NCBI GenBank assembly: GCA_963598795.1
Contig: CAVBUY010000002.1
Location: 78,216 to 142,215 of the forward strand
DNA: 64,000 bases
Direction of reading: 5' to 3'
Source: Alistipes shahii
GTDB taxonomy: Bacteria; Bacillota_I; Bacilli_A; RFN20; CAG-826
In this document: in pieces, positions 15,928-49,075 of the stretch
How positions within the stretch are numbered: the stretch's first letter is position 1
How the letters are laid out: every line of letters begins with the position of its first letter
Program-made: the position numbers and the translations under genes
The notes under the pieces: generated by a model
Told to the model about the DNA's origin: nothing
What the model saw: only the letters and a program-made list of their open reading frames with translations
Database searches by the model: none

Positions 15928-15953
15928 ACGCTTACAACAGTCATTCTCATAAT

Positions 15954-15999
15954 ATGAGCCTATGCTTTCAAACGTTTTTGGAAACTAGGCTCATTTTTT
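15954..15999 (+). terminator. Hairpin plus T-run between the two MATE genes
   Basis: The sequence is ATGAGCCTA-(23-nt loop)-TAGGCTCAT followed by TTTTTT. The T-run abuts the ATG of the second MATE gene at 16000. Confidence 0.5.
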
Positions 16000-17412: not shown

Positions 17413-17465
17413 CGAAAAGCGCAGAAGAAAATTCCGCCTTTTTTAAAATCGTTCCGATATTGACT

Positions 17466-19187
17466 TTATCTGACTCGTTCAATGTTATTTCCGTAATTGG
17501 AAATATCGGGTTTGGCATAGCTTGCGCCTGTTGCCTCTTTTGAGTTTTCAAACGTTATTCCCTCGGCGTATGAATTGATATAGCCAACATATGATTCGTC
17601 AATCGCTTTGCCCATAATGGAAATGTTCTTGAAATGGACGTTTTTTACATAATGGGCTTCTTTAACGTAACCGTCTCTGGTCTCCATCGATCCGGTCACT
17701 TTGACTTTGGGGTTTTCGTATCCCGAAAGCACCAAGACATTTGAAACGTCAACGCCGTCTATGTCCCCTAAGGCCGTCTTTTTGTGATTGTCGCTCCAAG
17801 TGGGACTATATGATACGTCGAAATCAAATAGATAAGGATTTCCGTCGCCTTTTCCCATTGAGGCGTCTTCCACCGTTATATTTTCATAACGGACGTTCCT
17901 AATTTTGGCGTTATTGCCGTTATGAATGCTCATGACCGGTTTATGGAAAGCGTGCAAAACGGTGATGTTTGAAAAGGAGATGTCCTCCATCTTTTCGCCA
18001 ATGGTTTCATAACCGATTTCCATGCACTGAGCAAGGTCTGTGACGATTAAGCAATCAGAGAAATGGATTCCCGAAGTGACGCCTTCGGCCCCATTTCGAT
18101 AATCAACGTAATTCTTAACGACCAAGGAATCGTCCCATGTGCGGAGGAAACAGCCTTCGACATTTACGTTTTTGCAGCTTTGGATGGATATTCCATCTCC
18201 GTTGCTGCGGCTGGATATCGTCTTTGTGTTTCTAATGGTGACCCCATTGCCGAAATAAATGTTATAAGCCCAACCAGCCGGATCCATGATGGAAAAGTCC
18301 TCAAGGACGAAATTGCTGCAGAAATTAAAGTCTAACGGAATTAAGGCAGTCCCTTCGTTTGGATTTCTCGGAAAGATCGATCCATCGATGACACCAGGCC
18401 CTTTTATTGAGAAATTGGAGGCGTTATGAGCGGAGAATTTGGCTCTTACAACCGCTCCGTCTTCCAAATAAATATGCTCATTGGAATAAACGACGATCTC
18501 GTTGTTGCTATTTATTCTCGAATCGTTGTCCTTGGTATGAATTCCTCTTTTGAAAACGATTTTGCCTGCCGTATCTTCTTCTTTTATCTCGTTAACGAAA
18601 AGATGCAAAGTCCTTTGCCTTGTTTCGATTAGATATTGTCCTGGGCTATCGATGTCAAACGATATGACCCATCTCGCTTTATCTATTTGATAAGGGATAT
18701 TCTTTCCTAATGGCCTTATGGTCACATCTTCCAAAGGGTTGAAGTTGCATTGCAAAAAGAGCTTTACCTTGCCTTTGATGGCAATAATGGAATAAGCAGA
18801 CATTACGCGAATACCGGCATCAGCCTTCCAAATTCGATTTTCGTTGATATTGACTTTATAAACCGGCACGGATTCCCCGGAAACAAACAATCTCATATTC
18901 GGATAAAGTTCCATTCCCTCAACATAATCTGAAAATTTAACCTTATTCGTTTCTTTTGTATCGGATGGGTCGTTATTGGGAGCGAAATAGCTATGGTCAA
19001 AATCCTTATAGCCGTTTTCGTCCCGAGAATATGAAACATCGGAAGAGGAATCCGAGGCGGATTGACTTCCGTTTTGAGAGGAACTGTCGTTGCTGGAAGA
19101 AAACACAGAGTCGCATCCAGAGAGAGTCAAAGCAATCGTTGACATCAGCAAAGCAAGGAATCGCCGTTTTCTTTTGAAAAGAAGCAT
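17466..19187 (-). CDS. Surface lipoprotein, right-handed beta-helix glycoside hydrolase-like (GH28-like motifs, family uncertain)
   Basis: The 573-aa ORF has signal MLLFKRKRRFLALLMSTIALTLSGC followed by a Ser-rich linker. Its repetitive beta-helix coils contain SNGDGISIQSCKNVNVEGCFLRTWDDSLVVK, resembling the NTDG/GDD-type catalytic motifs of GH28. It is a paralogue of 31310..33967. Confidence 0.65.
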   Translation of the reverse strand: MLLFKRKRRFLALLMSTIALTLSGCDSVFSSSNDSSSQNGSQSASDSSSDVSYSRDENGYKDFDHSYFAPNNDPSDTKETNKVKFSDYVEGMELYPNMRLFVSGESVPVYKVNINENRIWKADAGIRVMSAYSIIAIKGKVKLFLQCNFNPLEDVTIRPLGKNIPYQIDKARWVISFDIDSPGQYLIETRQRTLHLFVNEIKEEDTAGKIVFKRGIHTKDNDSRINSNNEIVVYSNEHIYLEDGAVVRAKFSAHNASNFSIKGPGVIDGSIFPRNPNEGTALIPLDFNFCSNFVLEDFSIMDPAGWAYNIYFGNGVTIRNTKTISSRSNGDGISIQSCKNVNVEGCFLRTWDDSLVVKNYVDYRNGAEGVTSGIHFSDCLIVTDLAQCMEIGYETIGEKMEDISFSNITVLHAFHKPVMSIHNGNNAKIRNVRYENITVEDASMGKGDGNPYLFDFDVSYSPTWSDNHKKTALGDIDGVDVSNVLVLSGYENPKVKVTGSMETRDGYVKEAHYVKNVHFKNISIMGKAIDESYVGYINSYAEGITFENSKEATGASYAKPDISNYGNNIERVR

Positions 19188-20932
19188 ACGTTATCTACAC
19201 GGAAGGAAATTCCGATTTCCGCGCCTTTCTTGAATCGCCCTAAGCCTTCGGTCGATATAATCAAATCTTCATCTTTGCCGTTAACAAAGGCATAAACCAA
19301 TGTTTCTTCGCCGAGTTGCTCAAGCATATTGATTTTGGCTTTGATGTTTTGCTCAACGTAACGCAGATCGCCTTCGACGGAAATGGCTCTCGGACGGATT
19401 CCCATTATTACGTTCAAACCTAAATATTCTTCGTTGAAGCCTTTCATGCGTTCTTTGGGTAGTTCCAACTCTTTGCCATCTAAGAAGTTTGCATAATATT
19501 TACCTTTTTTCTTAGTGACCTTAGCCTCGAAGAAATTCATCTGAGGTGTTCCGATAAAACCGGCCACGAATTGATTTTTCGGATTTAGAAAAACATCTTC
19601 CGGGGAACCGATTTGCTGAATGATTCCATCTTTCAAAACGACGATTTTGCTACCCATTGTCATAGCTTCGACTTGATCGTGCGTAACATAGATAAAGATC
19701 GTTTTAAGCCTATCGTGCAAACGAGTTATTTCACTACGCATCGCAACGCGCATTTTGGCATCCAAATTAGAAAGAGGCTCATCCAAAAGGAAGACTTCCG
19801 GATCACGCACGATTGCGCGTCCCAAGGCGACTCTCTGCCTTTGCCCACCTGACAAATTGGCTGGCTTTCTATCCAAATATTCCGTTAAGCCTATCTTCTC
19901 GGCCGCGGCGTTTACTTTCTCTTTGATTTCTTTTTTGCGGTTTTTGCGGTATTTGAAATCAAAGAAATGCTTGAAGGGGATCTTTTCCACTTCGAGAGGG
20001 AAGGCAATATTTTTGAAAACGCTAAGGTGAGGATAGAGGGCGTAGTTCTGGAAAACCATGGCTATATTGCGGTTTTTGGCTTCTTCGTCAGTGATGTCTT
20101 TATCATCTAAAAAGATAGAACCATTGGTAACGTCCTCAAGACCGCCGATCATTCTTAACACCGTGCTTTTGCCACATCCAGAAGGACCGACGAAAACGAC
20201 GAATTCCTCATCGTAAATATCGAGATTGAAATCCTTGATGGCCGTAACGCCGTTAGGATATGTTTTATATAAAGACTCTATTCTCAAACGAGGGCCGTCA
20301 TCGACGTATTTGAGCAAATCGCTGAGCTTTTTTATGGGGTGGTCAGTGAATTTGCTATTTGAAGCAAAGCCGATTCCAAAAGAGGTGAAACCACCGGCTT
20401 TGGCGGCTTCTACACCAGCGTCGGCATCCTCCACAACGCCGCAATCGCTCGGATCCAAACCCAACTTTTGAGCCGCTAGCAAAAAGACTTCGGGGTTTGG
20501 CTTGGAATTTACGATCATGCTACCATCCACCATAACGTCGAAGAAATCTTTCAAACCGATTTTTTCCAAGATGAATGGGGCATTCTTGCTTCCGCTTCCT
20601 AAAGCCAGCTTGATTCCTTTTTCTCTCAAAGCCTTTAAGCTCGATAAGACATCTTTATCGACGTCGCTGGGCTTTAAAGACTCTAACAAGTGGCGATAAA
20701 TATCGTTTTTCTTGTCGCAAAGCGCTTCTTTTTCTTCTTTTGAATATTTTTTGTCGGCTTTCTCCAAAATGATATTCAATGAATCCATGCGAGAAACGCC
20801 GCGAAGGCGATTGTTTATTTCTTCATCAAAATATATGCCCTCATCATCGGCCATCTTCTTCCAAGCGGCGTAATGAAAATCGTCAGTAGAGATGATAACG
20901 CCATCCAAATCGAAGATAATTCCTTTAATCAT
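19145..20932 (-). CDS. Fusion protein: beta-phosphoglucomutase (HAD) N-domain plus MalK/MsmX-type sugar ABC transporter ATPase
   Basis: A single 595-aa ORF has no internal stop or start at the junction. Residues 1-~205 carry IIFDLDGVI (HAD motif I), LGSGSKN and VVEDADAGVEAAKAGG, typical of PgmB. The remainder carries GPSGCGKST, LSGGQRQRVALGRA, VFLLDEPLSNLD, VTHDQ and a MalK-like C-terminal regulatory domain. Confidence 0.8.
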   Translation of the reverse strand: MIKGIIFDLDGVIISTDDFHYAAWKKMADDEGIYFDEEINNRLRGVSRMDSLNIILEKADKKYSKEEKEALCDKKNDIYRHLLESLKPSDVDKDVLSSLKALREKGIKLALGSGSKNAPFILEKIGLKDFFDVMVDGSMIVNSKPNPEVFLLAAQKLGLDPSDCGVVEDADAGVEAAKAGGFTSFGIGFASNSKFTDHPIKKLSDLLKYVDDGPRLRIESLYKTYPNGVTAIKDFNLDIYDEEFVVFVGPSGCGKSTVLRMIGGLEDVTNGSIFLDDKDITDEEAKNRNIAMVFQNYALYPHLSVFKNIAFPLEVEKIPFKHFFDFKYRKNRKKEIKEKVNAAAEKIGLTEYLDRKPANLSGGQRQRVALGRAIVRDPEVFLLDEPLSNLDAKMRVAMRSEITRLHDRLKTIFIYVTHDQVEAMTMGSKIVVLKDGIIQQIGSPEDVFLNPKNQFVAGFIGTPQMNFFEAKVTKKKGKYYANFLDGKELELPKERMKGFNEEYLGLNVIMGIRPRAISVEGDLRYVEQNIKAKINMLEQLGEETLVYAFVNGKDEDLIISTEGLGRFKKGAEIGISFRVDNVCFFSKENGDSLLC

Positions 20933-25297: not shown

Positions 25298-25300
25298 AAT

Positions 25301-26233
25301 TTATTCTTTGCTTCCTTTATTGGCTCCAACGCCCATAATCTGACGTTGGAAGATGAGAAATATGATGACTTGAGGAATGATGGATAAGACCAATAACATA
25401 AGGAATTCCTCAGGCTTTAATATGTCTCCGGCGTTTCCGATATCATAAATCCCGACCATTAACGTCTTCAGTTTGTCGTTCTGCAATACGAGGTATGGCA
25501 ACAAGAAGTCGCTATAAGAGGCAGTCATCGAGAAGATGGCGACGATGCCGATGATCGGTTTGGACAAAGGAAGGACGACGCGAGCGAATATCTGCATGCG
25601 GTTTGCTCCATCCATGCTGGCGGCTTCTATCAATGATTTGGGAAGCCTTGAGAAATAGTCTTTGAATAAGGTGTAGTAATAAGCATTGGCCCCAAAGCTT
25701 AGCCATAACGACAAGAACATAAGGTAAGATTCGTTGTCGGCCTGCAATAGTCCGATGGCGTTTATTTCCCTAATAAGCGGGAAGATGTTTAATACCGCCG
25801 GAATCATATAACCCAAGAAAATCAATTTATCGATTATTTTGTGGCCAACCGGTTTTATTATAGCTATTGCATAAGCAAGCAAACTGTTGAATACGACTGC
25901 GCAGATAACCGCGCCGATAACATAAACGAAGGTATTTAGGTAATAACGGCCGAAATCAATCTTTTGCCATAGTTCAACAACCTTATTCCAGTCCCAGACT
26001 TTAGGCCAAAACGTGTAGGTGGCGCTATAAATTTCCCCAGGGCTCTTTAATGAGCTCGCAAACAGATAAATGATGGGGAAAAGAGCCATGAAGGAGAAAA
26101 TACATAGGAATATGATAATCATTCCATAACCCGCTTTATGCCATGGGCTACGGTAATCGGCGAAGTTCAAGAATCCGCCGCGCTTGTCCTTCAAAAGTGG
26201 GAAGGTATATTTCTTCTTTTCTTTCCTTTTCAT
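25301..26233 (-). CDS. Carbohydrate ABC transporter permease (MalG-like)
   Basis: It has six TM-like segments and the EAA loop LIEAASMDGANRMQIFARVVLPLSKP. I chose the ATG at 26233, directly after the upstream stop. Confidence 0.85.
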   Translation of the reverse strand: MKRKEKKKYTFPLLKDKRGGFLNFADYRSPWHKAGYGMIIIFLCIFSFMALFPIIYLFASSLKSPGEIYSATYTFWPKVWDWNKVVELWQKIDFGRYYLNTFVYVIGAVICAVVFNSLLAYAIAIIKPVGHKIIDKLIFLGYMIPAVLNIFPLIREINAIGLLQADNESYLMFLSLWLSFGANAYYYTLFKDYFSRLPKSLIEAASMDGANRMQIFARVVLPLSKPIIGIVAIFSMTASYSDFLLPYLVLQNDKLKTLMVGIYDIGNAGDILKPEEFLMLLVLSIIPQVIIFLIFQRQIMGVGANKGSKE

Positions 26234-27147
26234 TTGCCTTCCCTCTTTTTTAAGAAACGATCTAACCATGCGTAAGCCAATGTAAAGGCAACGATAATGG
26301 CGGCCAAAACCATGGCGCAGGCTGCGCTCTTTCCATATTCAAAATCTTCGAAAGCGTATAGATAGGATAAAAGCATCAATGACATCGAGCTATTTAGCGG
26401 ACCGCCTTTAGGGCCGATGATCAAAGGCTCATAAAAAACTTGGAAAACGCTGATAATCTGCAAAACCAGCAAAGTCAGCATCGTCCCCCTCAAAGCGGGA
26501 ATGGTAACGCGCCAAAACCTCTGCCATGAACTGGCTCCGTCGATACGAGCGGCTTCATACATCGAATCGTCGATGGATTGGAAGGCGCTTAAATAAATTA
26601 ACGCAGTGCTTCCGGCCCCCTTCCAAGTCATGGCTAGCACTATCAAAGGGATAATCAAAGAAGTGGATCCCTTCCAAGGATGGGCTTCACCTCCAAATTT
26701 GGTGATTATCCAATTGAATAAGTCGTTGCTGGAATCCCCGTACATAGAATTGAACAAGAAGACCACGGCCATTCCGCTAATCATGCACGGAAGATACAAA
26801 ATAATGCGGAATAAGCCTTTCGCATGTATCACTTCGCTTAATAGGAAACCTAGGATTACCGGCACCAAATAGCCGATTGCCAAGGACCATAAAATATATA
26901 AGAAGGTGTTTTTCAAAGCGCTTAAGAACGTAGGGTCCTCAAAAATGGCTTTGAAGTTGGCAAAACCGACGAATTGGGGATCGTCATAGCCATCTTGAAA
27001 GGACAATATGGCGTTTCTTATCATCGGATACCAAACGAAAAAGGCAAACAAAACGAGAGGGACAATCATAAAGGCCCAGCCGATAAGGTTCTTTTTTAAA
27101 GAAGCCTTCCAATTCTTTTTTCGTTTTAGGTTGCCTTTCCTTTTCAT
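26230..27147 (-). CDS. Carbohydrate ABC transporter permease (MalF-like)
   Basis: The 305-aa ORF has the EAA loop YEAARIDGASSWQRFWRVTIPAL and six TM-like segments. Confidence 0.85.
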   Translation of the reverse strand: MKRKGNLKRKKNWKASLKKNLIGWAFMIVPLVLFAFFVWYPMIRNAILSFQDGYDDPQFVGFANFKAIFEDPTFLSALKNTFLYILWSLAIGYLVPVILGFLLSEVIHAKGLFRIILYLPCMISGMAVVFLFNSMYGDSSNDLFNWIITKFGGEAHPWKGSTSLIIPLIVLAMTWKGAGSTALIYLSAFQSIDDSMYEAARIDGASSWQRFWRVTIPALRGTMLTLLVLQIISVFQVFYEPLIIGPKGGPLNSSMSLMLLSYLYAFEDFEYGKSAACAMVLAAIIVAFTLAYAWLDRFLKKREGK

Positions 27148-27155
27148 AAATAAGG

Positions 27156-28568
27156 TTATTTATTGATAGTCTTATCCAATTCTTTCTGAAGGGTTTGAGA
27201 CGCGGTTTGCAACAAAGCTTTGCAATTGGCATTCTCTAGGTTGGCAAAGACGCTTTGGAGGGCGGTATCCAAGGCTTCATACATCTCCTGAGCCGCGTAT
27301 GGCTCTTCGCTTTTTTTGTTGCTTTGTATAGAAGAAAAGAACGGAGAATAGTCAGTCATGTCGACCGTAATATATCGTTGTTCTAATTCATTGGCTTTTG
27401 CCAAATAATCGGCGTCCTTCCAAGGCATGATGGTTGGTAATACTGGCTGATTCTTGTTCTTAGCCACTTCATAACCTTCTTCCTTGGCTTTCATGTTGTT
27501 GTCGCTAATGGACGGGGAACGGCCAATATAATCGAAAAACTTAAGGATGCCTTCGACTTTTTCGTCGGAAACGTTCTTGGTGAAAACATATGGAGTTCCG
27601 CCATAAAGGGAATAATGATGGGTCCCATCTCCGGTTGGCATCGGGACAAAGGCCAAGTCGGACATGTCAACGTCCCCTTGAAGTTTGGCTTGCTGGAGGA
27701 CATCGCTTCCAACGACTGCCATAGCGACCTTCTCGCCGATATTGGCATACCAGTCGTTATAAACGCAGCTTACGGCATCTTGGATGATCCCGTCGACTTT
27801 CATCTTCTTGATCCATTCAAGCGCCGATACGGCTCCCGCGCAATCGAGATTGGCTTTCCATTTGCCACTTTCTTGAACTTCCAATTCGGCCCCAAAATTC
27901 CAAGCGATGTTGGAAAAAACCCAACCGCCGTTCTTGTTGGCGCTATACATCAAAAAGCCTTTGGCGGAGTCTTCATTCTCATTTACGATGGTATTTCCAT
28001 ATTCATAAACCTGCTCCCAAGTAGTCGGATAAGCCGGGGTGCCGTCAGATTTGAAAATGTTATAAGTATGGTCGGCATTTTCCGGCAATAAGCCATTGTC
28101 GCCCAAAATTTTCTTATTTATCAATAATCCCAATCCATAGCCATCGCGTGGAATGCCATAGATTTCATTGTCAAAAGTCAAAGATTCTTTCATCTCGTCA
28201 TCCATCTTTTGATCCCAACCCAAGGCTCTTAGCTGAGTGGTGATTGAACGGATGATTTTCTTATCCATCAATTTCTCTGGCTCGGTAAACCATGTCTGCC
28301 AAACATCCGGAAGGCTGCCGGTACTGGCCTTTTGCCCAACGGTCTCGGTGCTATAGGTATATGGCATGCCTTTGATCTTATATTGAGGGTTTTCGTCTTC
28401 GAAACGCTTGGCCCAGACCTCATACATCGCCACATCTTGCTTAGAGGCGCTTTCCGGCCAAAAACCTATTTTCAAAACAATCTTATCGCCATCGCCTCCG
28501 CCATCACAGGAAGCCAATAAAACGCAGGCTAACGCTGATAAAATTTTTAAACTGTGGTTCTTTTTCAT
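27156..28568 (-). CDS. Sugar ABC transporter substrate-binding lipoprotein (family 1 SBP)
   Basis: The 470-aa ORF has lipobox VLLASC and the size and composition typical of an SBP. It sits immediately upstream of the two permease genes. Confidence 0.8.
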   Translation of the reverse strand: MKKNHSLKILSALACVLLASCDGGGDGDKIVLKIGFWPESASKQDVAMYEVWAKRFEDENPQYKIKGMPYTYSTETVGQKASTGSLPDVWQTWFTEPEKLMDKKIIRSITTQLRALGWDQKMDDEMKESLTFDNEIYGIPRDGYGLGLLINKKILGDNGLLPENADHTYNIFKSDGTPAYPTTWEQVYEYGNTIVNENEDSAKGFLMYSANKNGGWVFSNIAWNFGAELEVQESGKWKANLDCAGAVSALEWIKKMKVDGIIQDAVSCVYNDWYANIGEKVAMAVVGSDVLQQAKLQGDVDMSDLAFVPMPTGDGTHHYSLYGGTPYVFTKNVSDEKVEGILKFFDYIGRSPSISDNNMKAKEEGYEVAKNKNQPVLPTIMPWKDADYLAKANELEQRYITVDMTDYSPFFSSIQSNKKSEEPYAAQEMYEALDTALQSVFANLENANCKALLQTASQTLQKELDKTINK

Positions 28569-28589
28569 AAAACTGCCCCTTATAAATCA

Positions 28590-28617
28590 GGGGGAAGGGT
28601 GTCCTTCCCCCTTTTTT
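28590..28617 (+). terminator. GC-rich hairpin with a T6 run in the plus orientation only, inside the minus-strand operon
   Basis: The sequence is GGGGGAAGG-GTGT-CCTTCCCCC followed by TTTTTT on the plus strand. On the minus strand the same stem is followed by TGATTTAT. Confidence 0.4.
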
Positions 28618-28648
28618 AAGTATAACTTCAATCTTTAAGGCTAAAGAT

Positions 28649-31276
28649 CTATTCGGCTGGAGTAACGGTCTCCCAAGCCTGGTTGTAGTTGGCTACGCCG
28701 TTTTCGTAAGGATATTCTTTGGCAAGAACCTTGGAGGCTCCCAAAGAAAGTTTCCAAGCATGAGTTTGAGAATTATGGAAGTGGAGAACATCACCTTTTA
28801 CGAAGTTAATACCGGCGGCCTTCAAATCAATAACGATCGTTTTGGCTGCGGAAGTAAGCATAGCGGATAGATCAACGGCTGTACCATCAACGTTTTTGAT
28901 AAACCCAGCAACGTCTTTGGCCCAAATAGCTTCCTGTTCGCTATTCTTTGAGATCCTGAATTGATATAAATCGGATGAACCGTCGCTAGAAGAGACATCG
29001 ACATAAATTCTGTCGACGTTGGAAGTTACATCCCATCCACCAACGTAGTTGTATCCAGCGTCGCTTTCAACGTCTTTCGCGCCCATGCCATCATACATAT
29101 AGCCTGAGCTGGCTTTGAAGAATTCGATGAACTTGATGGTGCCACCGCCCAGTTCGGCATCGCCGGAGTGAATATGCATCCAACCATCACCTTCGGTCGG
29201 GAAAACACTCAAATCGGCATAGTAAGTGGTTGCTTCGGCCGGGATAACGGTGTCTGCAGAAACCTTAGATCCATTCTCATCATAGATGGTGATGGCGTTA
29301 TCTTTCGGCCATAAAGTCTTGCCATTCTGCTGGAAGCGGAGAGACTTTAAGGTAGCGTTGGTGCCATCGCCTTGAACGGTGAATCCAAGGTAATCGCCAT
29401 CAAAAGCTGGACCACAGTTGCCGGCATAGAAATAAGCGGTCATATCGTGTTCGGCGGCGGAATCAGCCCAACCGGAGACGACCTTTTCCGCGCTGAAGGA
29501 GTTAGCGTAGAAGATGGAATCAATAGATATGGCCTTAGCGCCTGTGTAATAGATATTGATAAGATCTTTAGCCACCAAGTTGTGCAAGCTTAAATCGACG
29601 ACATACCAGGTATAGCCATTGGCGTCCTTATAAGGGCTTTGGATGTTTTCGTCGCCATAGGTCTTAACGCCTTCCATAGCCAATGCGGAGTTAAACCAAA
29701 CAGCTTGTGCGCCTGAACCAAGTTCGAAACGGAAACTGGACAAGTCATAGCCTTCTTCGCCAGTGATGGCAAAGACCAGATATTGAGCGCCGCTTAGAAC
29801 GTGAGTGGAGCCAATAGTAACCTCGTCATAATTATCGGTAGCAGGCAAATGCAACGCGCCATTGCTGGTCGAGATATTTGCGCCATTGGAATAAGAAATA
29901 AAGCCATTGATGCCAGCCTTGATGTTTCTTTCATCGGCAGCGGAAGCGTCCCAATTGTCATCTAAGGAAGCAAAGTCACGATTGAAGTTATCAAAAGTGA
30001 CGGCATTCGCGGTATTCAAATGAGGGTATTTCTTATCGAGCTGTGGCTCTTCAAAGTCCGTCATGAAGACATTGGCAATATTCAATTCGTTCTTGCCATC
30101 GTTTTTTATGGTGATGGTCTTGATGTTGACATTGTCCGCGGCTTTGAAGATAGAAAGATCGATAGCCAAAGGCGCATAGGCGCCATCAACGGCATTAACG
30201 ACAGCCTTATCGGTTTTGGCTTTAAGATCAGCGAAAGGCAATTCCTTCTTCGTCTCATTGTCATAAGCCACCTCGATAGAAGCGCCGCTCATATCGCCCA
30301 AAACATCGAAAACGACGTGGGAATAGGCTCTTTGCTTTTCGCTTAATGTCGGAGTTGTGTATTTTTTGCCATCCGAGATTTCGATACCTTTGCGGACCAA
30401 AACGGCGTCAGCGCAATCAGTCGGACCCCAATAAACGTTGGGATTTCCACCGATCTTATCGCGGGCAAAATCATCTATGACGACTGTGGAATCGCCTTTG
30501 CTATAAGAAACCTCAGCGATTTCGATAACGGCTGAGACATCAGCGTCGGCCTTTACATAAAGGTGCATGCCCAAAGCGGATTCGAGAACCTTCAATTGGG
30601 TATCCGGGAATAATGTGTTTTCATCGCCGATTGATTCGGAAATGGAAATTGACAAAGTCTGGAATTCGTCAGTGAGTTCCGGAAGGGCTTCTTGATCTCC
30701 ATCGACGGCCTTATCCAAAGCGATTGGATAAACGTGAGCGCTGTTATCGTCGCTTGGACGAATAGCGAAAATCAAATCCTTGAGGGCTAATTTTCCTTCG
30801 ATCACGCGCATTTTGAAATTGACGACGGATTGTCCTAAGAGGGTCTTATCGCCATCGAAGGCGCTGCTGGCCATCTTATAAATGGCGGCGTCCGGGCTAT
30901 TTTGGAAGCTCGTCAATTTGCTATCGACAACTTCCCTCAATATGCCTTTATGCAAAACGCCATCGGAAACGCCATTGATGGATTCGCCGGAGAAATCCTC
31001 GACGATTGCGTCAAAACGCTCATCATATTCGCGAGTGATGGCGCCATCCCCCAACGTCTTAGTCAGTCCGTCTCTATGTTGGACTGGGTCTGTTGGGGTC
31101 GGAGTCGGGATACTCGAAGACGAGCTGCCCGGATCGGATGAGGATGAAGATGGGGCTATAGAAGAAGTGTCGTCCCCACCTTTGCTGGATGTGGAGGAAT
31201 CATCGTCGTTGCAACCAGCCATAATCAAGCTGGCAGCAAGCGGCAACATGACCCACAAGATTTTTTTACCTTTCAT
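28649..31276 (-). CDS. Large multi-module surface lipoprotein of unknown function (candidate glycan-binding protein)
   Basis: The 875-aa ORF has lipobox LIMAGC and a Ser-rich linker. It then has about five beta-sandwich-sized modules. Several open with a CBM-like 'hydrophobic-[DE]-[DN]-F' motif (IVEDFSGE, VIDDFARD, TFDNFNRD). Confidence 0.6.
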   Translation of the reverse strand: MKGKKILWVMLPLAASLIMAGCNDDDSSTSSKGGDDTSSIAPSSSSSDPGSSSSSIPTPTPTDPVQHRDGLTKTLGDGAITREYDERFDAIVEDFSGESINGVSDGVLHKGILREVVDSKLTSFQNSPDAAIYKMASSAFDGDKTLLGQSVVNFKMRVIEGKLALKDLIFAIRPSDDNSAHVYPIALDKAVDGDQEALPELTDEFQTLSISISESIGDENTLFPDTQLKVLESALGMHLYVKADADVSAVIEIAEVSYSKGDSTVVIDDFARDKIGGNPNVYWGPTDCADAVLVRKGIEISDGKKYTTPTLSEKQRAYSHVVFDVLGDMSGASIEVAYDNETKKELPFADLKAKTDKAVVNAVDGAYAPLAIDLSIFKAADNVNIKTITIKNDGKNELNIANVFMTDFEEPQLDKKYPHLNTANAVTFDNFNRDFASLDDNWDASAADERNIKAGINGFISYSNGANISTSNGALHLPATDNYDEVTIGSTHVLSGAQYLVFAITGEEGYDLSSFRFELGSGAQAVWFNSALAMEGVKTYGDENIQSPYKDANGYTWYVVDLSLHNLVAKDLINIYYTGAKAISIDSIFYANSFSAEKVVSGWADSAAEHDMTAYFYAGNCGPAFDGDYLGFTVQGDGTNATLKSLRFQQNGKTLWPKDNAITIYDENGSKVSADTVIPAEATTYYADLSVFPTEGDGWMHIHSGDAELGGGTIKFIEFFKASSGYMYDGMGAKDVESDAGYNYVGGWDVTSNVDRIYVDVSSSDGSSDLYQFRISKNSEQEAIWAKDVAGFIKNVDGTAVDLSAMLTSAAKTIVIDLKAAGINFVKGDVLHFHNSQTHAWKLSLGASKVLAKEYPYENGVANYNQAWETVTPAE

Positions 31277-31309
31277 AATGTTTTCCTTTCTGAAAGTTTT
31301 TAATCATTT

Positions 31310-33967
31310 TTATTTCACTCCATAAGCGCTGATTTCGGATATCTGCGCGCCATATCCTCCGGCGTTGTCGTTGGAGTAAACGACTATTTTCAGGAATCGG
31401 CAGCTAACGTTGCCCATATCGATGAGAACGCGATTGCCGGTCTGAGGATCGAAGAGATAATCGGCTTTTTCTTTAACGGTCGTGAAAGTCGTGCTTGAGG
31501 CGTTATATTCGAGGTTGCTGTCGCTTACCAAAATCTCGATGTTTTGGGTACGAGCCGTCCAAGTTAGGATCGGAGGCAAGCAAAGAACCACCTTTTCCAA
31601 TTTATAAACGTCTCCCAAATCAATCACGATGTGAGCGGGGAGAGACTTGCTCTCGTAGTAGCTGGTCCCGCTTGGCTCGCCGTCAACAACGTTGCCAACC
31701 GGATAGACGTCGTTATGCTCAGTGGAATCCACGATCGACTTCATGTAAGTCAGAGAAGGCGGGTAAAATTCGACTTCGCTGACAATGTAATGCTTCGGGG
31801 CGCGTAAGCCTTCGGTTCTGACGAAACGGAGTTGAATGCCTCCAAAATCCTGAGTCGGAAGGTTAATATCTACGACATTGCCGTTAGATGGGGACATCGT
31901 ATAACTCTTGGTCGTGACCAAACGAGTGTATTTATCGCTTATTTCAGTCGTACCGGATTTCTTTTTCCTAGCCCAAATCTGGACGCTATATGTAAGGCTA
32001 TATTCGTTGTCTTGGTCACCGAACAAGCGGATGACGCCGACATTGGTCACAGAATCGAAATCCAAAGTCAATGTCGCGAATTCGTTATCCTCGTTTTTCC
32101 ATTCGCCAGAAATATATTTGGTTGTTTTATCGCCATCAAAGGCATAGTTGGCTTGGCTGCCTTCACTAATGAATTCGCCACTTCCATCATCGCCCGGCGT
32201 GGTGGTTTTGGTACCGGCGCCATGGGTGGCGGTAGCCGTTCCTCCAACCGAAGCTTTTACGCCGATGAAGCTAGGCTCACCGGTGTAATAAGCGAATTTT
32301 GGAACGATTAACCCTTCTTGAGATATGGAGTCGATTTCGGTTTTATTAACGTTTTTGTCAGTCAAATTGGATTTATAGGGCAAAGTGACATACGCTCCAT
32401 GCACTTTATCCATTTTTGAGAAAGTCAAACCACTCACGTATTCGTTGCTTGCTAAGCCGATCTGAGAAGCGGAGGTAATCTGATTACCTTCGATTTCCAA
32501 TCCTTTGATTTCGACGTTTTTAAAAGAACTGGTTTCGTCTTCTCCACGGATTCTGGCTGTGACGGTATCGGCCATTTCATAAACCTTAACATTCTCGACA
32601 TGGATGCCGTCGACTGAGCCGCGCTTATCGCCGCTCTTGGTCCATTCGGCATTATAAGCAATGGTGAAATCGAACAAGAAATCGTTTTCGCCATCATTGC
32701 GATCGTCTCCCAAACATTCGGCGTCTTCTACGGTTATGTTCTAATATGTGACGTTGGTGATCTTGGCTTGATCGCAATTATGGAGGGAAATGACGGCTTT
32801 ATGTTTAGCATGAACGACGATGATGTTTTCGAATTTGATATTATCCATCGTCGGACCATATGTCTCATATCCGACTTCCATGGATTGGGCAAGATCCGTC
32901 CAAACCACGACGTCATGGATATTTATGTTGCTGGTAGAGCCCATATCGCTGTTCTTAACGACCAAAGAGTCATCCCAAGTGCGGACATATCCGCCGCTTA
33001 CTTCCACGTCCGAGCAGCTTTGGACAGAGATACCATCGCCATTGCTTCTGGCGGTGATGATCTTGACGTTGTTAACTTTGACCGATTGGCATTTCCAAAG
33101 ATGCAAAGCCCATCCGGCCGGATCGAAGAAAGCTATGTCTTCGATAGTGAGATTGCTTACGCTTCTCATAACGACTGGGATGGTATATTCGTTTGAACTG
33201 TTTCTGCTATAGATGCTGCCGGAAACGATGCCTCTCCCGCGGATGGTGACGTTCTTGACCGCTTCGGCGGAGAATTGGCCATAAACATAAGCTCCACCGG
33301 CCAAATAGATGGTCGTGTTGTCCTTTATCGGGAAAACGCCGGCGTCATAAATGCCAGGACCGACATAGATGATATTGTCGTCTTTATCGGCTTCTTCTTT
33401 AGTAATTGGGTCTTTCTCGATTGGATTTGCGAAGATTTGGATAGCCGAATCGCTGTTATCGTTATATTCGAGGACGTAGTTTCCGCTATGAGTCAAATCG
33501 AAGGAAATGGTATGTTCCGTAAAACTTGGGGCAATGCCATAAACGCTTGGACGGAGAATGGCGCTGCTAATAGTCGTTTCTAAGATGGTAACGTCCAAAT
33601 GAACAGTGCCTTCAAAATCGAAGATGACGGCTTGGGTCATGGTCGTTGGGGCAGCCCAAGAAAAGACACGGCCATGATTGACGCGTGTCTCATAAACGAA
33701 TAAATCAACGTCGTTGACCTTGACGCTTACTGTTTTGGAGCTTTCTAAGAGAGCAGGTCCATCGTAAGTCACCAGTTTGGTGGTGTTTACTTCATTAGTC
33801 GGGGTGATAAAGGCTTCGGCATCGTAATGATCGTTGGTAGTGGACGAACTAGAATCGTCAGACGAAGACACATCGTCATTGCAGCCGCAAGCCAAAGAAG
33901 CGATGAGACCGAAAAGGACGAAAGCAGAAGCTTTCTTCATGGTCGTCAAAAGATTTTTTTCTTTCAT
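31310..33967 (-). pseudogene. Beta-helix glycoside hydrolase lipoprotein with two F5/8-type-C (discoidin) modules, interrupted by one in-frame TAG at 32741..32743
   Basis: The ORF-track pieces 32741..33967 (408 aa, lipoprotein signal plus beta-helix) and 31310..32713 (467 aa) are in the same frame. The minus strand reads ...ITNVTY-TAG-NITVEDAECLGDDRNDGENDFLFDF. The intact paralogue (17466..19187) reads ...IRNVRYENITVEDASMGKGDGNPYLFDF, so the TAG sits where it has Glu. The C-terminal part contains discoidin-like NYAFDGDKTTKY and VVDGEPSGTSYYES. Confidence 0.7.
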
Positions 33968-33999
33968 GGCTTTTCTCTTTTGTATGTCTGGTTGTCTAA

Positions 34000-34028
34000 A
34001 TTATTTCACCGCCACACATCTTTGTAAA
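34000..34028 (-). promoter_or_regulatory. Candidate promoter of the glycan-utilisation operon, TTTACA-N17-AATAAT
   Basis: On the minus strand the -35 TTTACA is at 34028..34023, the spacer is 17 nt, and the -10 AATAAT is at 34005..34000. The -10 element lies about 30 nt upstream of the ATG at 33967. Confidence 0.4.
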
Positions 34029-34035
34029 GAAGAAA

Positions 34036-34049
34036 GTTAACCGCTTAAC
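34036..34049. promoter_or_regulatory. Candidate LacI-family operator, GTTAA-N4-TTAAC
   Basis: The 14-bp dyad GTTAACCGCTTAAC abuts the -35 element of the operon promoter. The same dyad type occurs twice upstream of the LacI gene. Confidence 0.45.
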
Positions 34050-34115
34050 CCATCGATAAAATGTATCAAAAAATCATTGAATCAAAAAATGTCCAAGGAA
34101 GATGAGATATTATTC

Positions 34116-35135
34116 TTACTTAAGTTTCGAGGTGCTTTGTCTTACCAAAATACTCGACTCGATAACATATGTTTTCTTGCTGCTGGATTTATTTTCGATC
34201 TCGTCAAGGATCGTCTTGGCGCTCAAAATGCCTTTCTCACGAATGTCTTGATGGACGGTAGTCAAGGTTGGGTGAATATATTGGGCCGGCTGAATATCGT
34301 CGAAACCGATAACCGACAATTTCTTTGGCAATTCGACTCCCAATTCCAACAAACGTCTGATCAAACCGATGGCGACGATATCGGCATCCACCACAATCGC
34401 GGTCATCTTATCTAATTTTTCTTTGATAGCGTCGCCAACGGAATAACCGCCATCTAAACTGGTCAAGGTGTGAAAGACGATATCTTTATCTATGGGGAGA
34501 TTGGATTCCTTTAAGGCTTTCTCATATCCCAAATAACGTTCGTGGTTAAGGAATGAGGTGCTCAATCCCCCAAGGAAGCCTATCTTTTCATGGCCTAATT
34601 CAATGAGGTGACGAACGGCTAGATATTCCCCTTTTTCATCATCGATGCGGATATTAGGAAGTGGGGCGGAATAGTCTTCGTAAACATCAACCAAAACAGT
34701 CGGAGCATTCATATCGACCAATGCTTTTTCGATATCCTTGGACAATGAGCCCAACACAACGATGCCATCCAATCCACGGGATTTATACCAATGCTCAAAC
34801 CCTGATGCCGTTTGGTTCGAGCACATGATAACGTCATAGCCTTTCTCTTGAAGGACGCTTTCGAAGGCACCCAAGAATTCACCATAGAAAGGGTTGTTGA
34901 AAAAAGCCTCGCTGTTAGCGTTAAGAGGAAGGGCAACGCCAATCAAATAGCTCTTTCCGGTTGATAGAGATACCGCCGCATGATCGCGGGTATATCCCAA
35001 TTCGGCCATTGCCTTATAAATGCGCTTTCTCGTGGCTTCCGAGGCTTTGCCCTCCTTGCCATTCAAAACATAAGAAACCGTCGCGCTGGAGACGTTCACT
35101 CGTTTGGCAATGTCATAAATGCTCGGCTTTCTCAT
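34116..35135 (-). CDS. LacI-family transcriptional regulator
   Basis: The 339-aa ORF has the N-terminal HTH SIYDIAKRVNVSSATVSYVLNGK followed by a periplasmic-binding-protein-like sugar-binding domain. Confidence 0.9.
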   Translation of the reverse strand: MRKPSIYDIAKRVNVSSATVSYVLNGKEGKASEATRKRIYKAMAELGYTRDHAAVSLSTGKSYLIGVALPLNANSEAFFNNPFYGEFLGAFESVLQEKGYDVIMCSNQTASGFEHWYKSRGLDGIVVLGSLSKDIEKALVDMNAPTVLVDVYEDYSAPLPNIRIDDEKGEYLAVRHLIELGHEKIGFLGGLSTSFLNHERYLGYEKALKESNLPIDKDIVFHTLTSLDGGYSVGDAIKEKLDKMTAIVVDADIVAIGLIRRLLELGVELPKKLSVIGFDDIQPAQYIHPTLTTVHQDIREKGILSAKTILDEIENKSSSKKTYVIESSILVRQSTSKLK

Positions 35136-35155
35136 TTCATAAGAATAATCTTTTG

Positions 35156-35169
35156 GTTAATGTTTTAAC
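35156..35169. promoter_or_regulatory. Candidate LacI-family operator, GTTAA-N4-TTAAC
   Basis: GTTAATGTTTTAAC lies about 20 nt upstream of the LacI ATG. Confidence 0.4.
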
Positions 35170-35223
35170 AAGCAAAAAATGAATAACCACCGCATTAAAT
35201 TGGTGCTTATAAATACTATCCTC

Positions 35224-35247
35224 GTTAACCTGTTAACTTTGGTTAAC
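35224..35247. promoter_or_regulatory. Candidate LacI-family operator, GTTAA-N4-TTAAC, plus an extra GTTAAC half-site
   Basis: GTTAACCTGTTAAC is at 35224..35237, followed by GTTAAC at 35242..35247. Confidence 0.4.
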
Positions 35248-38513: not shown

Positions 38514-38534
38514 ATATATTTTCCTTTCTAAGCA

Positions 38535-39338: not shown

Positions 39339-39353
39339 ATCTAAGTCTCCTTT

Positions 39354-43755: not shown

Positions 43756-43839
43756 TGGTGCTCGGTACAGGAATCGAACCTGCACGGGAATCCCATTAGA
43801 TCCTAAGTCTAACGCGTCTGCCAGTTCCGCCAACCGAGC
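43756..43839 (-). tRNA. tRNA-Leu (anticodon UAG), class II with a long variable arm, CCA encoded
   Basis: I folded it by hand. The acceptor stem is GCTCGGT/ACCGAGC and the anticodon stem is TTAGA/TCTAA with loop CTTAGGA. The variable arm is 13 nt, the T-loop is TTCGATT, and the 3' end is ACCA. Confidence 0.85.
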
Positions 43840-45737: not shown

Positions 45738-45813
45738 TGGTGCCGCCTAGCGGAATCGAACCACCAACCTATTGATTACAAATCAATTGCTCTGCCAATT
45801 GAGCTAAAGCGGC
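45738..45813 (-). tRNA. tRNA-Thr (anticodon UGU), CCA encoded
   Basis: I folded it by hand. The acceptor stem is GCCGCTT/AGGCGGC and the anticodon stem is ATTGA/TCAAT with loop TTTGTAA. The T-loop is TTCGATT. Confidence 0.85.
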
Positions 45814-45816
45814 AAA

Positions 45817-45891
45817 TGGTGGGTGTTATTGGGATCGAACCAATGACCTCTTCCGTGTGAAGGAAGCGCTCTCCCGCTGAGCCAAACACCC
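45817..45891 (-). tRNA. tRNA-Val (anticodon CAC), CCA encoded
   Basis: I folded it by hand. The acceptor stem is GGGTGTT/AACACCC and the anticodon stem is CTTCC/GGAAG with loop TTCACAC. The T-loop is TTCGATC. It lies 3 nt upstream of tRNA-Thr. Confidence 0.85.
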
Positions 45892-48998: not shown

Positions 48999-49075
48999 TG
49001 GTGGGCCTTAATGGGCTTGAACCATCGACCTCACGCTTATCAAGCGTGCGCTCTAACCAACTGAGCTAAAGGCCC
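48999..49075 (-). tRNA. tRNA-Ile (anticodon GAU), CCA encoded
   Basis: I folded it by hand. The acceptor stem is GGGCCTT/AAGGCCC and the anticodon stem is CACGC/GCGTG with loop TTGATAA. The T-loop is TTCAAGC. Confidence 0.85.

Follow-up and report, generated by a model that had tools for sequence, protein, structure and literature searches.

Which polysaccharide is degraded by a locus that encodes surface-anchored beta-helix enzymes, a sugar importer and two GH65 proteins side by side? We analysed such a locus of an uncultured bacterium from the gut or rumen in a window of 64 kb, which is the whole stretch of DNA under study, by domain and motif searches, structure models and comparison with related loci.

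Gene content and conservation of the locus

The genes reported by the first-pass annotation, from the LacI regulator through the second beta-helix lipoprotein, were all found on the minus strand in the order given there (Table 1), and their content supports its description as a Gram-positive-type glycan utilisation operon with a LacI-type regulator. Content, order and short gaps of the "uninterrupted string" were likewise reproduced, but the first beta-helix gene (BH1) is broken by an in-frame TAG. The phrase "built entirely from lipoproteins" applies to the four exported proteins, whose signal peptides are lipobox-like and lead into Ser-rich linkers, but not to the remaining proteins. Spacing ranges from overlaps up to 148 nt, with the maximum between the LacI and BH1 genes; the LP875 gene is flanked by gaps of 33 nt and 80 nt, and from the SBP gene through BH2 the genes overlap or are at most 8 nt apart. 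The genes are presumably co-transcribed. The gene beyond the terminator-like hairpin that follows BH2 is convergent.

Table 1. Genes and candidate control elements of the locus, numbered by position in the window
Feature	Position	Strand	Remarks
LacI regulator gene	34116-35135	minus	
BH1 (beta-helix and two F5/8-type-C/discoidin modules)	31310-33967	minus	
LP875, 875-aa lipoprotein	28649-31276	minus	
SBP, solute-binding lipoprotein	27156-28568	minus	
ABC permease 1	26230-27147	minus	
ABC permease 2	25301-26269	minus	likely start 26233
GH65-1, 754 aa	23033-25297	minus	
GH65-2, 703 aa	20925-23036	minus	
Beta-phosphoglucomutase::MalK-type ABC ATPase fusion	19145-20932	minus	
BH2, second beta-helix lipoprotein	17466-19187	minus	likely start 19145
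Palindrome GTTAACAGGTTAAC	35224-35237		5' of LacI gene; candidate operator (autoregulation); kept in L082
Second palindrome GTTAAAACATTAAC	35156-35169		5' of LacI gene
Palindrome GTTAAGCGGTTAAC	34036-34049		candidate LacI operator directly 5' of BH1 -35 box
Promoter-like TTTACA-17-AATAAT, extended -10 TG	34000-34028	minus	10/12 matches; consensus match only
Hairpin, 10-bp stem with 7 GC pairs, stable	28589-28612		between LP875 and SBP genes
Terminator-like hairpin	17421-17437	minus	3' of last gene (BH2); consensus match only

About 33 related loci of different species share the order SBP-permease-permease-GH65-GH65-fusion-beta-helix, indicating that the arrangement is not due to chance; a BH2-type gene directly follows GH65-GH65-fusion in about 33 species. 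About 40 loci, from uncultured Clostridia and some Bacilli/Acholeplasmatales MAGs, carry a BH-BH-LP875 block without any GH65 gene within 10 kb, so that outer and inner modules are not universally linked. Related loci derive from the guts of reindeer and other ruminants, where lichen and microbial glucans occur.

Two GH65 phosphorylases with different specificity motifs

All three GH65 domains of Pfam are present in both GH65-1 and GH65-2. Both retain the catalytic Glu, together with the phosphate-site residues (Lys or Arg, Ser-Ser, His) by which GH65 phosphorylases are told apart from hydrolases (PMC11442529), and these active-site residues support their assignment as phosphorylases. Residues W356, E357 and F384 of GH65-2, invariant in 31 orthologues, correspond to W-E-F at positions 391, 392 and 417 of CsKP. 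Among the published subsite motifs, W-E-F is that of nigerose phosphorylases, as opposed to WET, MVI and WRA for kojibiose, maltose and trehalose phosphorylases, respectively (PMC11442529). GH65-2 also has the long loops 3 and 11 published for nigerose phosphorylases, and inspection of the specificity residues did not find the glucosylglycerol-specific Phe-Phe. GH65-2 is thus predicted to be nigerose-phosphorylase-like.

GH65-1 has a short loop 3 and F-A-R-T-Q-S at the six correlated specificity positions, compared with FAITQA in ChGP, a characterised alpha-1,3-oligoglucan phosphorylase (PMC8537180). Four of the six (F, A, T, Q) are identical; the other two positions differ, with R or L in place of I at 394 and S, T or A in place of A at 585. 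By hand count, the loop-3 block starting with PIATRNGEEACTLWQHAS is about 61% identical to a reconstructed ChGP sequence and about 31% identical to L. brevis maltose phosphorylase. Local matches between GH65-1 and an error-ridden machine-read ChGP sequence have only about 38-43% identity. From these motifs, GH65-1 appears to be alpha-1,3-oligoglucan-phosphorylase-like. Genes for nigerose and alpha-1,3-oligoglucan phosphorylases are often found side by side according to a review (PMC11442529), and such adjacency has been published as a hallmark of alpha-1,3-glucoside catabolism.

Motif comparison detected neither the kojibiose (W-E-T, EEAP) nor the maltose or trehalose motifs in the two enzymes. 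Residues and motifs therefore uphold the earlier assignment of phosphorylases that are not of the plain maltose or trehalose type, and of the two linkages proposed initially, they speak for alpha-1,3 and against alpha-1,2. Database names would instead suggest a system for kojibiose or other alpha-1,2-glucosides. GH65-1 scores 906 bits against 6w0p, named kojibiose phosphorylase by its depositors, but this entry is unpublished and from an uncultured bacterium (PMC8950772), so that the name is an annotation only. The kojibiose phosphorylase YcjT belongs to the ycj locus, which has homologues of the transporter, mutase and ATPase in the same order, although both GH65 proteins are just 25-28% identical to YcjT. 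Nigerose phosphorylases have minor kojibiose activity (PMC11442529); where kojibiose enzymes have W-E-T, GH65-1 has I-A...H and GH65-2 has W-E...F, and EEAP occurs in neither. We consider an alpha-1,2-specific system quite improbable.

The beta-helix enzymes resemble GH49 and GH28

In the lipoprotein BH2, an N-terminal beta-sandwich precedes the beta-helix (AF2 model, pLDDT 90); unlike BH1, it has no discoidin modules. Foldseek identified GH49 enzymes, which act on alpha-glucans, as its closest folds along the entire protein, N-terminal sandwich included: Aspergillus niger isopullulanase (1wmr/3wwg; E 2e-15, TM 0.58-0.62) and dextranases (6nzs, 1ogm), together spanning E 2e-15 to 5e-10 and TM 0.48-0.62. 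GH49 shares the sandwich followed by a right-handed beta-helix, with 13-15% identity to BH2; GH49 is a member of clan GH-N, in which an Asp triad is used. The NGDG...WDDS motif noted at first is real and invariant over 35 family members (N329 G330 D331 G332 and D352 D353), including the catalytic Asp residues of GH28. The family profile matches both GH28 and GH49, reaching dextranase 1ogm by sequence in the first coils only; Pfam GH49 models gave no match to the beta-helix proteins at E up to 0.01. At least 412 species genomes encode relatives of the family.

Could these proteins be divergent members of GH28 whose substrate is a pectic or some other non-glucan polymer, with the GH65 pair serving a glucosylated side chain such as Glc-alpha-1,3-Rha? 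Pfam GH28 matches are weak but above the gathering score (31-34 vs 22.9 bits), the best PDB sequence matches of the family are exo-polygalacturonases, and the loci without nearby GH65 genes would fit such a role. The catalytic coils and the N-x-D-G and D-D motifs align with those of Thermotoga maritima exo-polygalacturonase (3jur), which lacks the extra N-terminal sandwich domain. On the other hand, the family alignment lacks the uronate-binding GHG and RIK motifs of GH28, with A-Q in place of the GHG His and S-I-H, whose His is invariant, in place of the RIK Arg/Lys. NCBIfam pectinase equivalogs reach 56-65 bits against cut-offs of 600, about a tenth, and the full-length fold is nearer to GH49. 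The gene context is alpha-glucoside catabolism rather than pectin, and domain searches of the locus found no uronate or rhamnose catabolic genes. Neither GH65 protein combines the Val 392 and His 417 of GH65 subgroup 7 (PMC8537180 supplement), a single sequence for which PMC8537180 does not name glucosyl-rhamnose phosphorylase activity and for which we infer it. A pectic substrate is thus unlikely, and the earlier expectation that these are not clean GH28 pectinases is borne out. The weak GH28 scores, the missing uronate motifs and a model nearest to GH49 together define an uncharacterised family. We regard BH2 as a putative extracellular endo-alpha-glucanase of this clan GH-N family; endo-action is predicted for both beta-helix enzymes.

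The nearest solved folds argue against a purely alpha-1,3-linked substrate because they cut alpha-1,6 (dextran) or alpha-1,4 (pullulan) rather than alpha-1,3 bonds. The GH87 enzymes Agl-KA (5zru) and Agl-FH1 (6k0q), which act on alpha-1,3-glucan and are also extracellular beta-helix proteins, match the BH2 fold only weakly (E 3e-6 to 4e-5, TM 0.30-0.37), and no sequence match between GH87 and the family was found in sequence and profile searches of the PDB. Some GH87 enzymes bear discoidin-type binding modules. The substrate could instead be a mixed-linkage alpha-glucan with alpha-1,3 bonds, such as nigeran or isolichenan (alpha-1,3/1,4), alternan, or alpha-1,3-branched dextran (alpha-1,3/1,6), in which the GH49-like enzymes would cut alpha-1,4 or alpha-1,6 bonds, the GH65 pair would take only alpha-1,3-linked glucose and enzymes encoded outside the locus would complete degradation. 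Besides the GH49 folds and the 1ogm match, this reading gains from the elongation of several disaccharides by ChGP, nigerose not alone (PMC8537180, PMC8950772), and from the ruminant origin of the related loci, with their lichen and microbial glucans. Domain searches, however, found no alpha-1,6- or alpha-1,4-glucosidase gene in the operon, which alone could then not fully degrade mixed-linkage fragments, and an enzyme of the strict W-E-F type suggests that free nigerose is an end product. We therefore view a mixed-linkage substrate as possible but rather doubtful.

The lipoprotein BH1 combines a beta-sandwich at the N-terminus with a catalytic beta-helix domain (PF00295, 31 bits) and two F5/8-type-C modules (PF00754 in two stretches). 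The TAG at 32741-32743 divides it into parts of 408 aa and 476 aa, whereas AAG (Lys) stands at this position in a strain of 98% DNA identity and in an 82% relative, whose intact orthologue has 885 aa. The TAG is either an error in the sequence or a true nonsense mutation, and in the latter case BH1 is probably inactive here. BH1 is also disrupted, but differently, in the nearest strain, where GH65-2 is split. These defects may reflect decay or poor assemblies.

Predicted surface binding, import and regulation

LP875 consists of about six beta-sandwich modules (all-beta AF2 model, pLDDT 85.3). Pfam and NCBIfam gave no match, and Foldseek matched it only weakly, to multi-CBM proteins, and detected no catalytic fold. 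In 39-43 related loci its gene adjoins one of the BH1 type, and LP875 is a putative surface glycan-binding protein. The hairpin downstream of its gene is kept in L083 with both arms changed and is possibly a partial terminator or an mRNA-stabilising element.

SBP is a lipoprotein of a CUT1-type ABC importer (PF01547, E 4e-13), with E. coli YcjN as its best solved relative (8vqk, E 4e-8). The permeases (both PF00528) are 28% and 27% identical to YcjO and YcjP, respectively; the permease 2 orthologue is called as 310 aa. The fusion protein joins a beta-phosphoglucomutase (residues 1 to about 210; 42% identical to YcjU) to a MalK/UgpC-type ATPase (about 216-595; 52% identical to YcjV). It contains the Pfam domains HAD, ABC_tran and OB_MalK, scores 245 bits with TIGR01990, above the equivalog cut-off of 189, and 421 bits with PRK11650. 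The fusion is conserved in all related loci compared (31 of 31).

The LacI regulator (339 aa; PF00356 HTH, E 8.5e-17; PF13377, E 1e-30) is 25% identical to E. coli YcjW. With up to one mismatch, the pattern GTTAANNNGTTAAC occurs at only three sites in 64 kb, all flanking the LacI gene (six strand-hits vs 0.97 expected; 0 of 100 shuffles reach six). The GTTAAGCGGTTAAC site and its spacing are identical in L082 and L083, and similar sites lie beside LacI genes of the distant loci L017, L024 and L025; the BH1 promoter-like site is kept in L083. The palindromes likely mark operators of the regulator.

Proposed pathway and comparison with known systems

Taken together, we lean, by a little more than an even chance, toward a LacI-controlled operon for an alpha-glucan from which alpha-1,3-linked gluco-oligosaccharides (nigero-oligosaccharides) are imported. 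Alpha-1,3-glucan is our best guess for the polymer, with a fungal, lichen or bacterial source likely. This model builds on direct observations of gene content, order and conservation, phosphorylase active sites, specificity motifs, the BH2 fold and the fusion. BH1 and BH2, surface-anchored lipoprotein glycanases of one family, would cut the polymer outside the cell with a GH28/GH49-type inverting Asp triad, while LP875 would keep the glycan at the surface. SBP and the two permeases would take up the oligosaccharides, powered by the ATPase fused to beta-phosphoglucomutase. GH65-1 would release glucose units as beta-glucose-1-phosphate from oligomers of DP >=3 down to nigerose, GH65-2 would convert nigerose to beta-glucose-1-phosphate and glucose, and the fused mutase would turn beta-glucose-1-phosphate into glucose-6-phosphate at the transporter. 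The LacI protein would hold the promoter off via GTTAAnnnnTTAAC palindromes until an inducer sugar is present.

The genes for transport and phosphorolysis have homologues arranged alike in the E. coli ycj locus (ycjN-O-P ... ycjT-U-V, ycjW), which likewise has SBP, two permeases, GH65, mutase and MalK-type ATPase in this order as well as a LacI regulator. Unlike the present locus, it has a single GH65 (YcjT), additional dehydrogenase and epimerase genes and no extracellular glycanases, and ycjU and ycjV are separate genes (ycjV is a pseudogene in K-12).

The pathway design has a precedent in Lachnoclostridium phytofermentans, for which a phosphorylase pair, beta-phosphoglucomutase, ABC importer, LacI and extracellular beta-helix glucanase have been described or proposed (PMC11442529, PMC9061262). 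This bacterium has a cluster with the nigerose phosphorylase Cphy_1874 and adjacent genes for nigerose (Cphy_3313) and alpha-1,3-oligoglucan (Cphy_3314) phosphorylases (PMC11442529, PMC9061262, PMC8950772); the nigerose phosphorylase cluster also encodes LacI regulators, an ABC transporter and a beta-helix protein that is a putative GH87 alpha-1,3-glucanase (PMC9061262). Judged from published descriptions and motifs, the two systems share side-by-side nigerose-type and oligoglucan-type GH65 enzymes yielding beta-glucose-1-phosphate, as well as an ABC importer and LacI; in both, extracellular beta-helix endo-glucanase activity is proposed to supply the oligosaccharides. In contrast to L. phytofermentans, the present locus has no GH31 alpha-1,3-glucosidase, joins mutase and transporter ATPase in one protein, encodes only lipoproteins among its exported proteins, and has a pair from the uncharacterised GH28/GH49-like family in place of the putative GH87 enzyme. 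The type of pathway is thus already known, and the outer beta-helix enzymes represent an unstudied family.

Gene content and integrity of the locus

The genes listed below are almost certainly those of an alpha-glucoside uptake and phosphorolysis system with surface glycanases, laid out as a predicted operon. The first-pass annotation had already listed these genes, and the list was borne out by our ORF listing and profile searches. From the gene of the solute-binding lipoprotein (SBP) to that of the second beta-helix lipoprotein (BH2), all neighbours lie at most 8 nt apart or overlap. Wider gaps follow LacI (148 nt to the first beta-helix gene, BH1), BH1 (33 nt to the gene of the 875-aa lipoprotein LP875), and LP875 (80 nt to the SBP gene). 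A terminator-like hairpin and then a converging gene are found 3' of BH2. Two tandem MATE-family transporter genes (14527-17412, plus strand) converge on the operon end, and the related locus L001 has the same neighbours.

Genes of the predicted operon and its regulator
Feature	Position	Strand	Observation
LacI regulator	34116-35135	minus	LacI HTH and sugar-binding domains
BH1, beta-helix with two F5/8-type-C modules	31310-33967	minus	weak GH28 match, two discoidin stretches
LP875, 875-aa lipoprotein	28649-31276	minus	without family match
Solute-binding lipoprotein SBP	27156-28568	minus	PF01547
ABC permease 1	26230-27147	minus	PF00528
ABC permease 2	25301-26269	minus	PF00528
GH65-1, 754 aa	23033-25297	minus	three GH65 domains
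GH65-2, 703 aa	20925-23036	minus	GH65 N-terminal and catalytic domains
Beta-phosphoglucomutase::MalK-type ATPase	19145-20932	minus	TIGR01990, 245 bits against a cut-off of 189
BH2, second beta-helix lipoprotein	17466-19187	minus	weak GH28 match

The string of genes had been described as uninterrupted, which does not hold for BH1, broken by an in-frame TAG at 32741-32743. At this position, the related loci L082 (98% DNA identity) and L083 (82%) read AAG (Lys), and the L083 orthologue is intact with 885 aa. We rejected stop-codon reassignment, since the relatives have AAG and table 11 leaves every other gene open. The nearest strain (L082, L001) has other defects: indels cut its BH1 short at 818 aa, and its GH65-2 is in two parts of 194 and 516 aa. 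The TAG and the defects of the nearest strain stem either from errors of MAG assembly or from a decay of the locus that is specific to the lineage.

Upstream of LacI, and on its strand, are three more genes for lipoproteins of 1061, 267, and 606 aa (35328-41174). Two of the three proteins contain Big_2 Ig-like repeats, all three share one and the same Ser-rich linker after the lipobox, and the 1061-aa protein is retained only in the closest relatives (L020, L082). No enzyme domains were found in the three proteins, and for this reason and their restriction to the closest relatives we excluded them as members of the system. Four minus-strand tRNA genes (43759-43839, 45741-45813, 45820-45891, and 49002-49075) were the only Rfam matches at threshold in the window.

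The two GH65 proteins resemble a published phosphorylase pair

Both GH65 proteins matched the catalytic-domain profile PF03632 (E 1e-104 and 5e-99) as well as PF03636, and GH65-1 also matched PF03633. A phosphate site composed of Lys/Arg, Ser-Ser, and His separates GH65 phosphorylases from hydrolases (PMC11442529). In alignments to 3wiq, numbered after the Caldicellulosiruptor kojibiose phosphorylase (CsKP), both proteins keep the catalytic acid Glu (E483), and the phosphate site K/R330, S631, S632, and H675 replaces the catalytic base. The Glu, K/R, and Ser-Ser are invariant among 31-34 GH65 orthologues, the His being read from pairwise alignments only.

Two published sets of positions distinguish the substrates of GH65 phosphorylases. 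CsKP positions 391, 392, and 417 hold W-E-T in kojibiose, M-V-I in maltose, W-R-A in trehalose, and W-E-F in nigerose phosphorylases (PMC11442529). Six correlated specificity positions (64, 392, 394, 402, 416, and 585) read FAITQA in ChGP, a characterised alpha-1,3-oligoglucan phosphorylase, KV[MF]NES in maltose, EEAPxx in kojibiose, and TRIGPP in trehalose phosphorylases (PMC8537180).

GH65-2 carries W356, E357, and F384 at the first set of positions, and none of the 31 orthologues departs from this W-E-F. Among solved structures, the glucosylglycerol phosphorylase 4ktp matches GH65-2 best (368 bits); the two align without gaps in loops 3 and 11, and loop 11 of GH65-2 is five residues longer than that of CsKP. 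Long loops 3, 7, and 11 are a trait of nigerose phosphorylases, as in glucosylglycerol phosphorylase (PMC11442529). Judged by its motif and its long loops, GH65-2 is a predicted nigerose phosphorylase. We rejected 2-O-alpha-glucosylglycerol phosphorylase for GH65-2, in which Tyr-Asn replaces the glycerol-binding Phe395-Phe396 and Glu replaces Ile at the 392-equivalent position.

For alpha-1,3-oligoglucan phosphorylases, a short loop 3 and a gene beside that of a nigerose phosphorylase have been used as criteria (PMC11442529), and GH65-1 has both a short loop 3 and a nigerose-type neighbour gene. Its loop 3 is as short as in maltose phosphorylase, with an 11-residue gap relative to CsKP. Oligoglucan phosphorylase genes often adjoin nigerose phosphorylase genes, the first enzyme trimming chains to nigerose and the second splitting nigerose (PMC11442529); the 4-nt overlap of the GH65-1 and GH65-2 genes corresponds to this side-by-side arrangement. 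At the six correlated positions, GH65-1 reads F-A-R-T-Q-S and equals the published ChGP motif at four of six. Among GH65-1 orthologues, F, A, and Q are invariant, position 394 is R or L, and position 585 is S, T, or A. For loop 3, the ChGP gene came from an indel-ridden, machine-read text (PMC8537180 supplement), of which only local matches and a region that we reconstructed and checked against FAITQA are usable. The loop-3 block reads PIATIDGTESCTLWQHAN in the reconstructed ChGP, PIATRNGEEACTLWQHAS in GH65-1, and PMVTFDGIECHNEWEITF in the maltose phosphorylase of L. brevis. For its different loop 3, we discarded MiGP, a member of a neighbouring GH65 subgroup, as the model nearest to GH65-1.

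Maltose phosphorylase was likewise rejected for GH65-1, which reads I-A...H and C-T-L against 1h54 and shares only the Ser at 585; none of the maltose motifs sought in GH65-1 (M-V-I, H-N-E, and KV[MF]NES) was present. The first-pass annotation had proposed an unusual alpha-glucan, a proposal that plain maltose or trehalose phosphorylases would contradict. It stands in this respect, with GH65-1 lacking M-V-I and GH65-2 having W-E-F rather than W-R-A. The closest solved structure to GH65-1 is 6w0p (906 bits), an unpublished entry from an uncultured bacterium for which "kojibiose phosphorylase" is an annotation only (PMC8950772). A kojibiose reading of the locus, to which this name might point, is disfavoured: W-E-T and EEAP are absent from both GH65 proteins, GH65-1 having I-A...H and GH65-2 having W-E...F, Q394, and S402. 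We consider alpha-1,3-linked gluco-oligosaccharides derived from alpha-1,3-glucan to be the most probable substrate, with a confidence slightly above even. The main rival substrate, mixed-linkage alpha-glucans containing alpha-1,3 bonds, appears rather unlikely.

The beta-helix lipoproteins lie between GH28 and GH49

The Pfam GH28 (PF00295) scores of BH1 and BH2, 31.1 and 34.4 bits, lie just above the gathering score of 22.9, and the NCBIfam pectinase equivalogs scored 56-65 bits for the beta-helix proteins, about a tenth of their cut-off of 600. N-G-D-G and W-D-D, the acid triad of GH28/GH49 type, are invariant in an alignment of 35 family members and correspond to the catalytic Asp motifs N-T-D and D-D of GH28. 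In GH28 enzymes, the His of G-H-G and the Arg/Lys of R-I-K bind the uronate. The corresponding positions of the beta-helix family hold A-Q and S-I-H (compared with 3jur and 5olp). Weak Pfam matches, the low equivalog scores, and the missing G-H-G and R-I-K mean that the two proteins do not fall cleanly among the GH28 pectinases, the other outcome that would have spoken against an unusual alpha-glucan. Pectin as the substrate, which the GH28 matches might suggest, is disfavoured.

The AlphaFold model of BH2 has a mean pLDDT of 90. Its top PDB fold matches by Foldseek are GH49 enzymes, namely isopullulanase (E 2e-15, TM 0.58-0.62) and then dextranases; these matches (3wwg, 1wmr, 6nzs, and 1ogm) extend over the full length, including the N-terminal beta-sandwich. 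GH28 enzymes rank after GH49, and the GH87 alpha-1,3-glucanases are a weaker Foldseek match (TM 0.30-0.37). At the sequence level, PDB sequence and profile searches found no GH87 match to the beta-helix proteins, and the Pfam GH49 models gave no match at E up to 0.01. A profile of the beta-helix family matches GH28 in the catalytic coils and the GH49 dextranase 1ogm in the first coils, over 80 residues only. Because the profile matches both families and the fold of BH2 is closest to GH49, we place the family in clan GH-N between GH28 and GH49. Literature searches found no published, assayed member, and the relatives listed all bear the source name "hypothetical protein". A PDB sequence search with the discoidin half of BH1 gave nothing at E up to 0.01.

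LP875 and the mutase-ATPase fusion

No family match was obtained for LP875 in profile searches. Its model (pLDDT 85) is a chain of about six beta-sandwich modules, in which Foldseek found no catalytic fold. Because the Foldseek matches, to proteins with several carbohydrate-binding modules, are weak and of low TM, no function can be claimed beyond beta-sandwich repeats; a putative surface glycan-binding protein is the most economical reading of the model.

The beta-phosphoglucomutase half of the fusion scored 245.2 bits with TIGR01990, above the equivalog cut-off of 189.4, and contains the DxD nucleophile motif as "FDLDGVI" at residues 7-13. The in-frame fusion to the MalK-type ATPase occurs in all 31 related loci having both parts (in the range L001-L076). 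Through such a fusion, a catabolic enzyme would sit on the importer, and its conservation makes it a tidy case in which to study metabolic channelling at an ABC importer.

Distribution and regulation

Relatives of BH2 were collected by scanning one genome per species, which gave at least 412 species-level genomes or stretches, and the best 80 loci were examined. These derive mostly from gut and rumen MAGs of uncultured Bacilli and Clostridia, the Bacilli being recorded as Mollicutes, Acholeplasmatales, Anaeroplasma, and "Candidatus Enteromonas". Two blocks recur among the best 80 loci. Block A (SBP-permease-permease-GH65-GH65-mutase::ATPase-BH2) is found in about 33 loci, and block B, in which an LP875 homologue comes after a BH1-type gene bearing discoidin modules, in 39-43. 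In several Bacilli block A is directly followed by block B. Block B is usually followed by a YesN-like AraC-type response regulator and a YesM-like histidine kinase (L026:17755-20678 and about 32 others). In the window, block B comes ahead of the SBP gene, and LacI stands instead of the two-component system. LacI is found in the window and its closest relatives as opposed to the usual YesM/YesN elsewhere; one structural module has thus exchanged its regulator.

About 40 loci, from uncultured Clostridia and some Bacilli/Acholeplasmatales MAGs, have block B without a GH65 gene within 10 kb; here a BH2-type gene, and often also a MalK-like ATPase, comes before block B. The MalK-like ATPases before the beta-helix pair in these GH65-free loci have 616-727 aa (L029:8046-9899, L031, L075:7741-9921, and L017:7860-10001), with a C-terminal extension of 250-350 residues without a Pfam match. 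No substrate-revealing enzymes were found beside the clostridial loci, where the neighbours are housekeeping genes, leucine-rich-repeat/TPR proteins, and the MalK-like ATPase.

The LacI protein has HTH_LacI and sugar-binding domains, and a palindrome, GTTAAnnnnTTAAC, lies near a promoter-like element. It occurs at only three sites within the 64-kb window, all flanking the LacI gene: one adjoins the -35 box of the promoter-like element in front of BH1, and two are upstream of the LacI gene. The BH1-side palindrome is identical in L082 and L083, and in L017, L024, and L025, which are more distant loci, the LacI genes have similar palindromes next to them. These features are those expected of a LacI-family repressor, for which the palindrome is a candidate operator. 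A GC-rich, stable hairpin at 28589-28612 in the LP875-SBP gap is kept in L083 with both arms changed; no good U-tract was found after it on the coding strand. This hairpin may attenuate transcription or stabilise the message.

Comparison with known systems and implications

The alpha-1,3-glucoside loci of L. phytofermentans, compared through their published descriptions, follow the same pathway logic as the window locus. Their phosphorylases are of nigerose and oligoglucan type, and they have LacI regulators, an ABC importer, and a putative endo-glucanase of GH87 (PMC11442529, PMC9061262). The transport and phosphorolysis half of the locus is homologous in order to the E. coli ycj locus. E. 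coli YcjN is the best solved relative of the SBP, and the ATPase and mutase halves of the fusion are 52% and 42% identical to YcjV and YcjU, respectively. The genes ycjU and ycjV are adjacent but separate in E. coli, and their counterpart in the window is a single fusion. What sets the locus apart from the known systems is its extracellular enzyme family, the partner lipoprotein of that family, and the conserved fusion, all of them new.

We tentatively propose, as a possibility short of an even chance, that the beta-helix lipoproteins found a new GH-N family or divergent subfamily of endo-alpha-1,3- or other alpha-glucanases, that they form a surface module with LP875, and that the fusion physically couples import to the first committed metabolic step. 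If true, this surface module would be widespread and previously unrecognised, and uncultured, Mollicutes-like gut and rumen Bacilli together with some Clostridia would exploit it to obtain alpha-glucan from microbes or fungi. In fungal cell walls and biofilms, alpha-1,3-glucan is a major polymer, and to our knowledge only GH71 and GH87 enzymes cut it. The locus is a complete and directly testable candidate gene set. If its substrate is ordinary, it is one more Gram-positive sugar operon; it would gain in interest should the beta-helix proteins turn out to constitute a new family of alpha-glucanases. As a third type of such enzymes, they would represent a new enzyme class and reveal a nutrient niche for poorly known, wall-less-like gut Bacilli.
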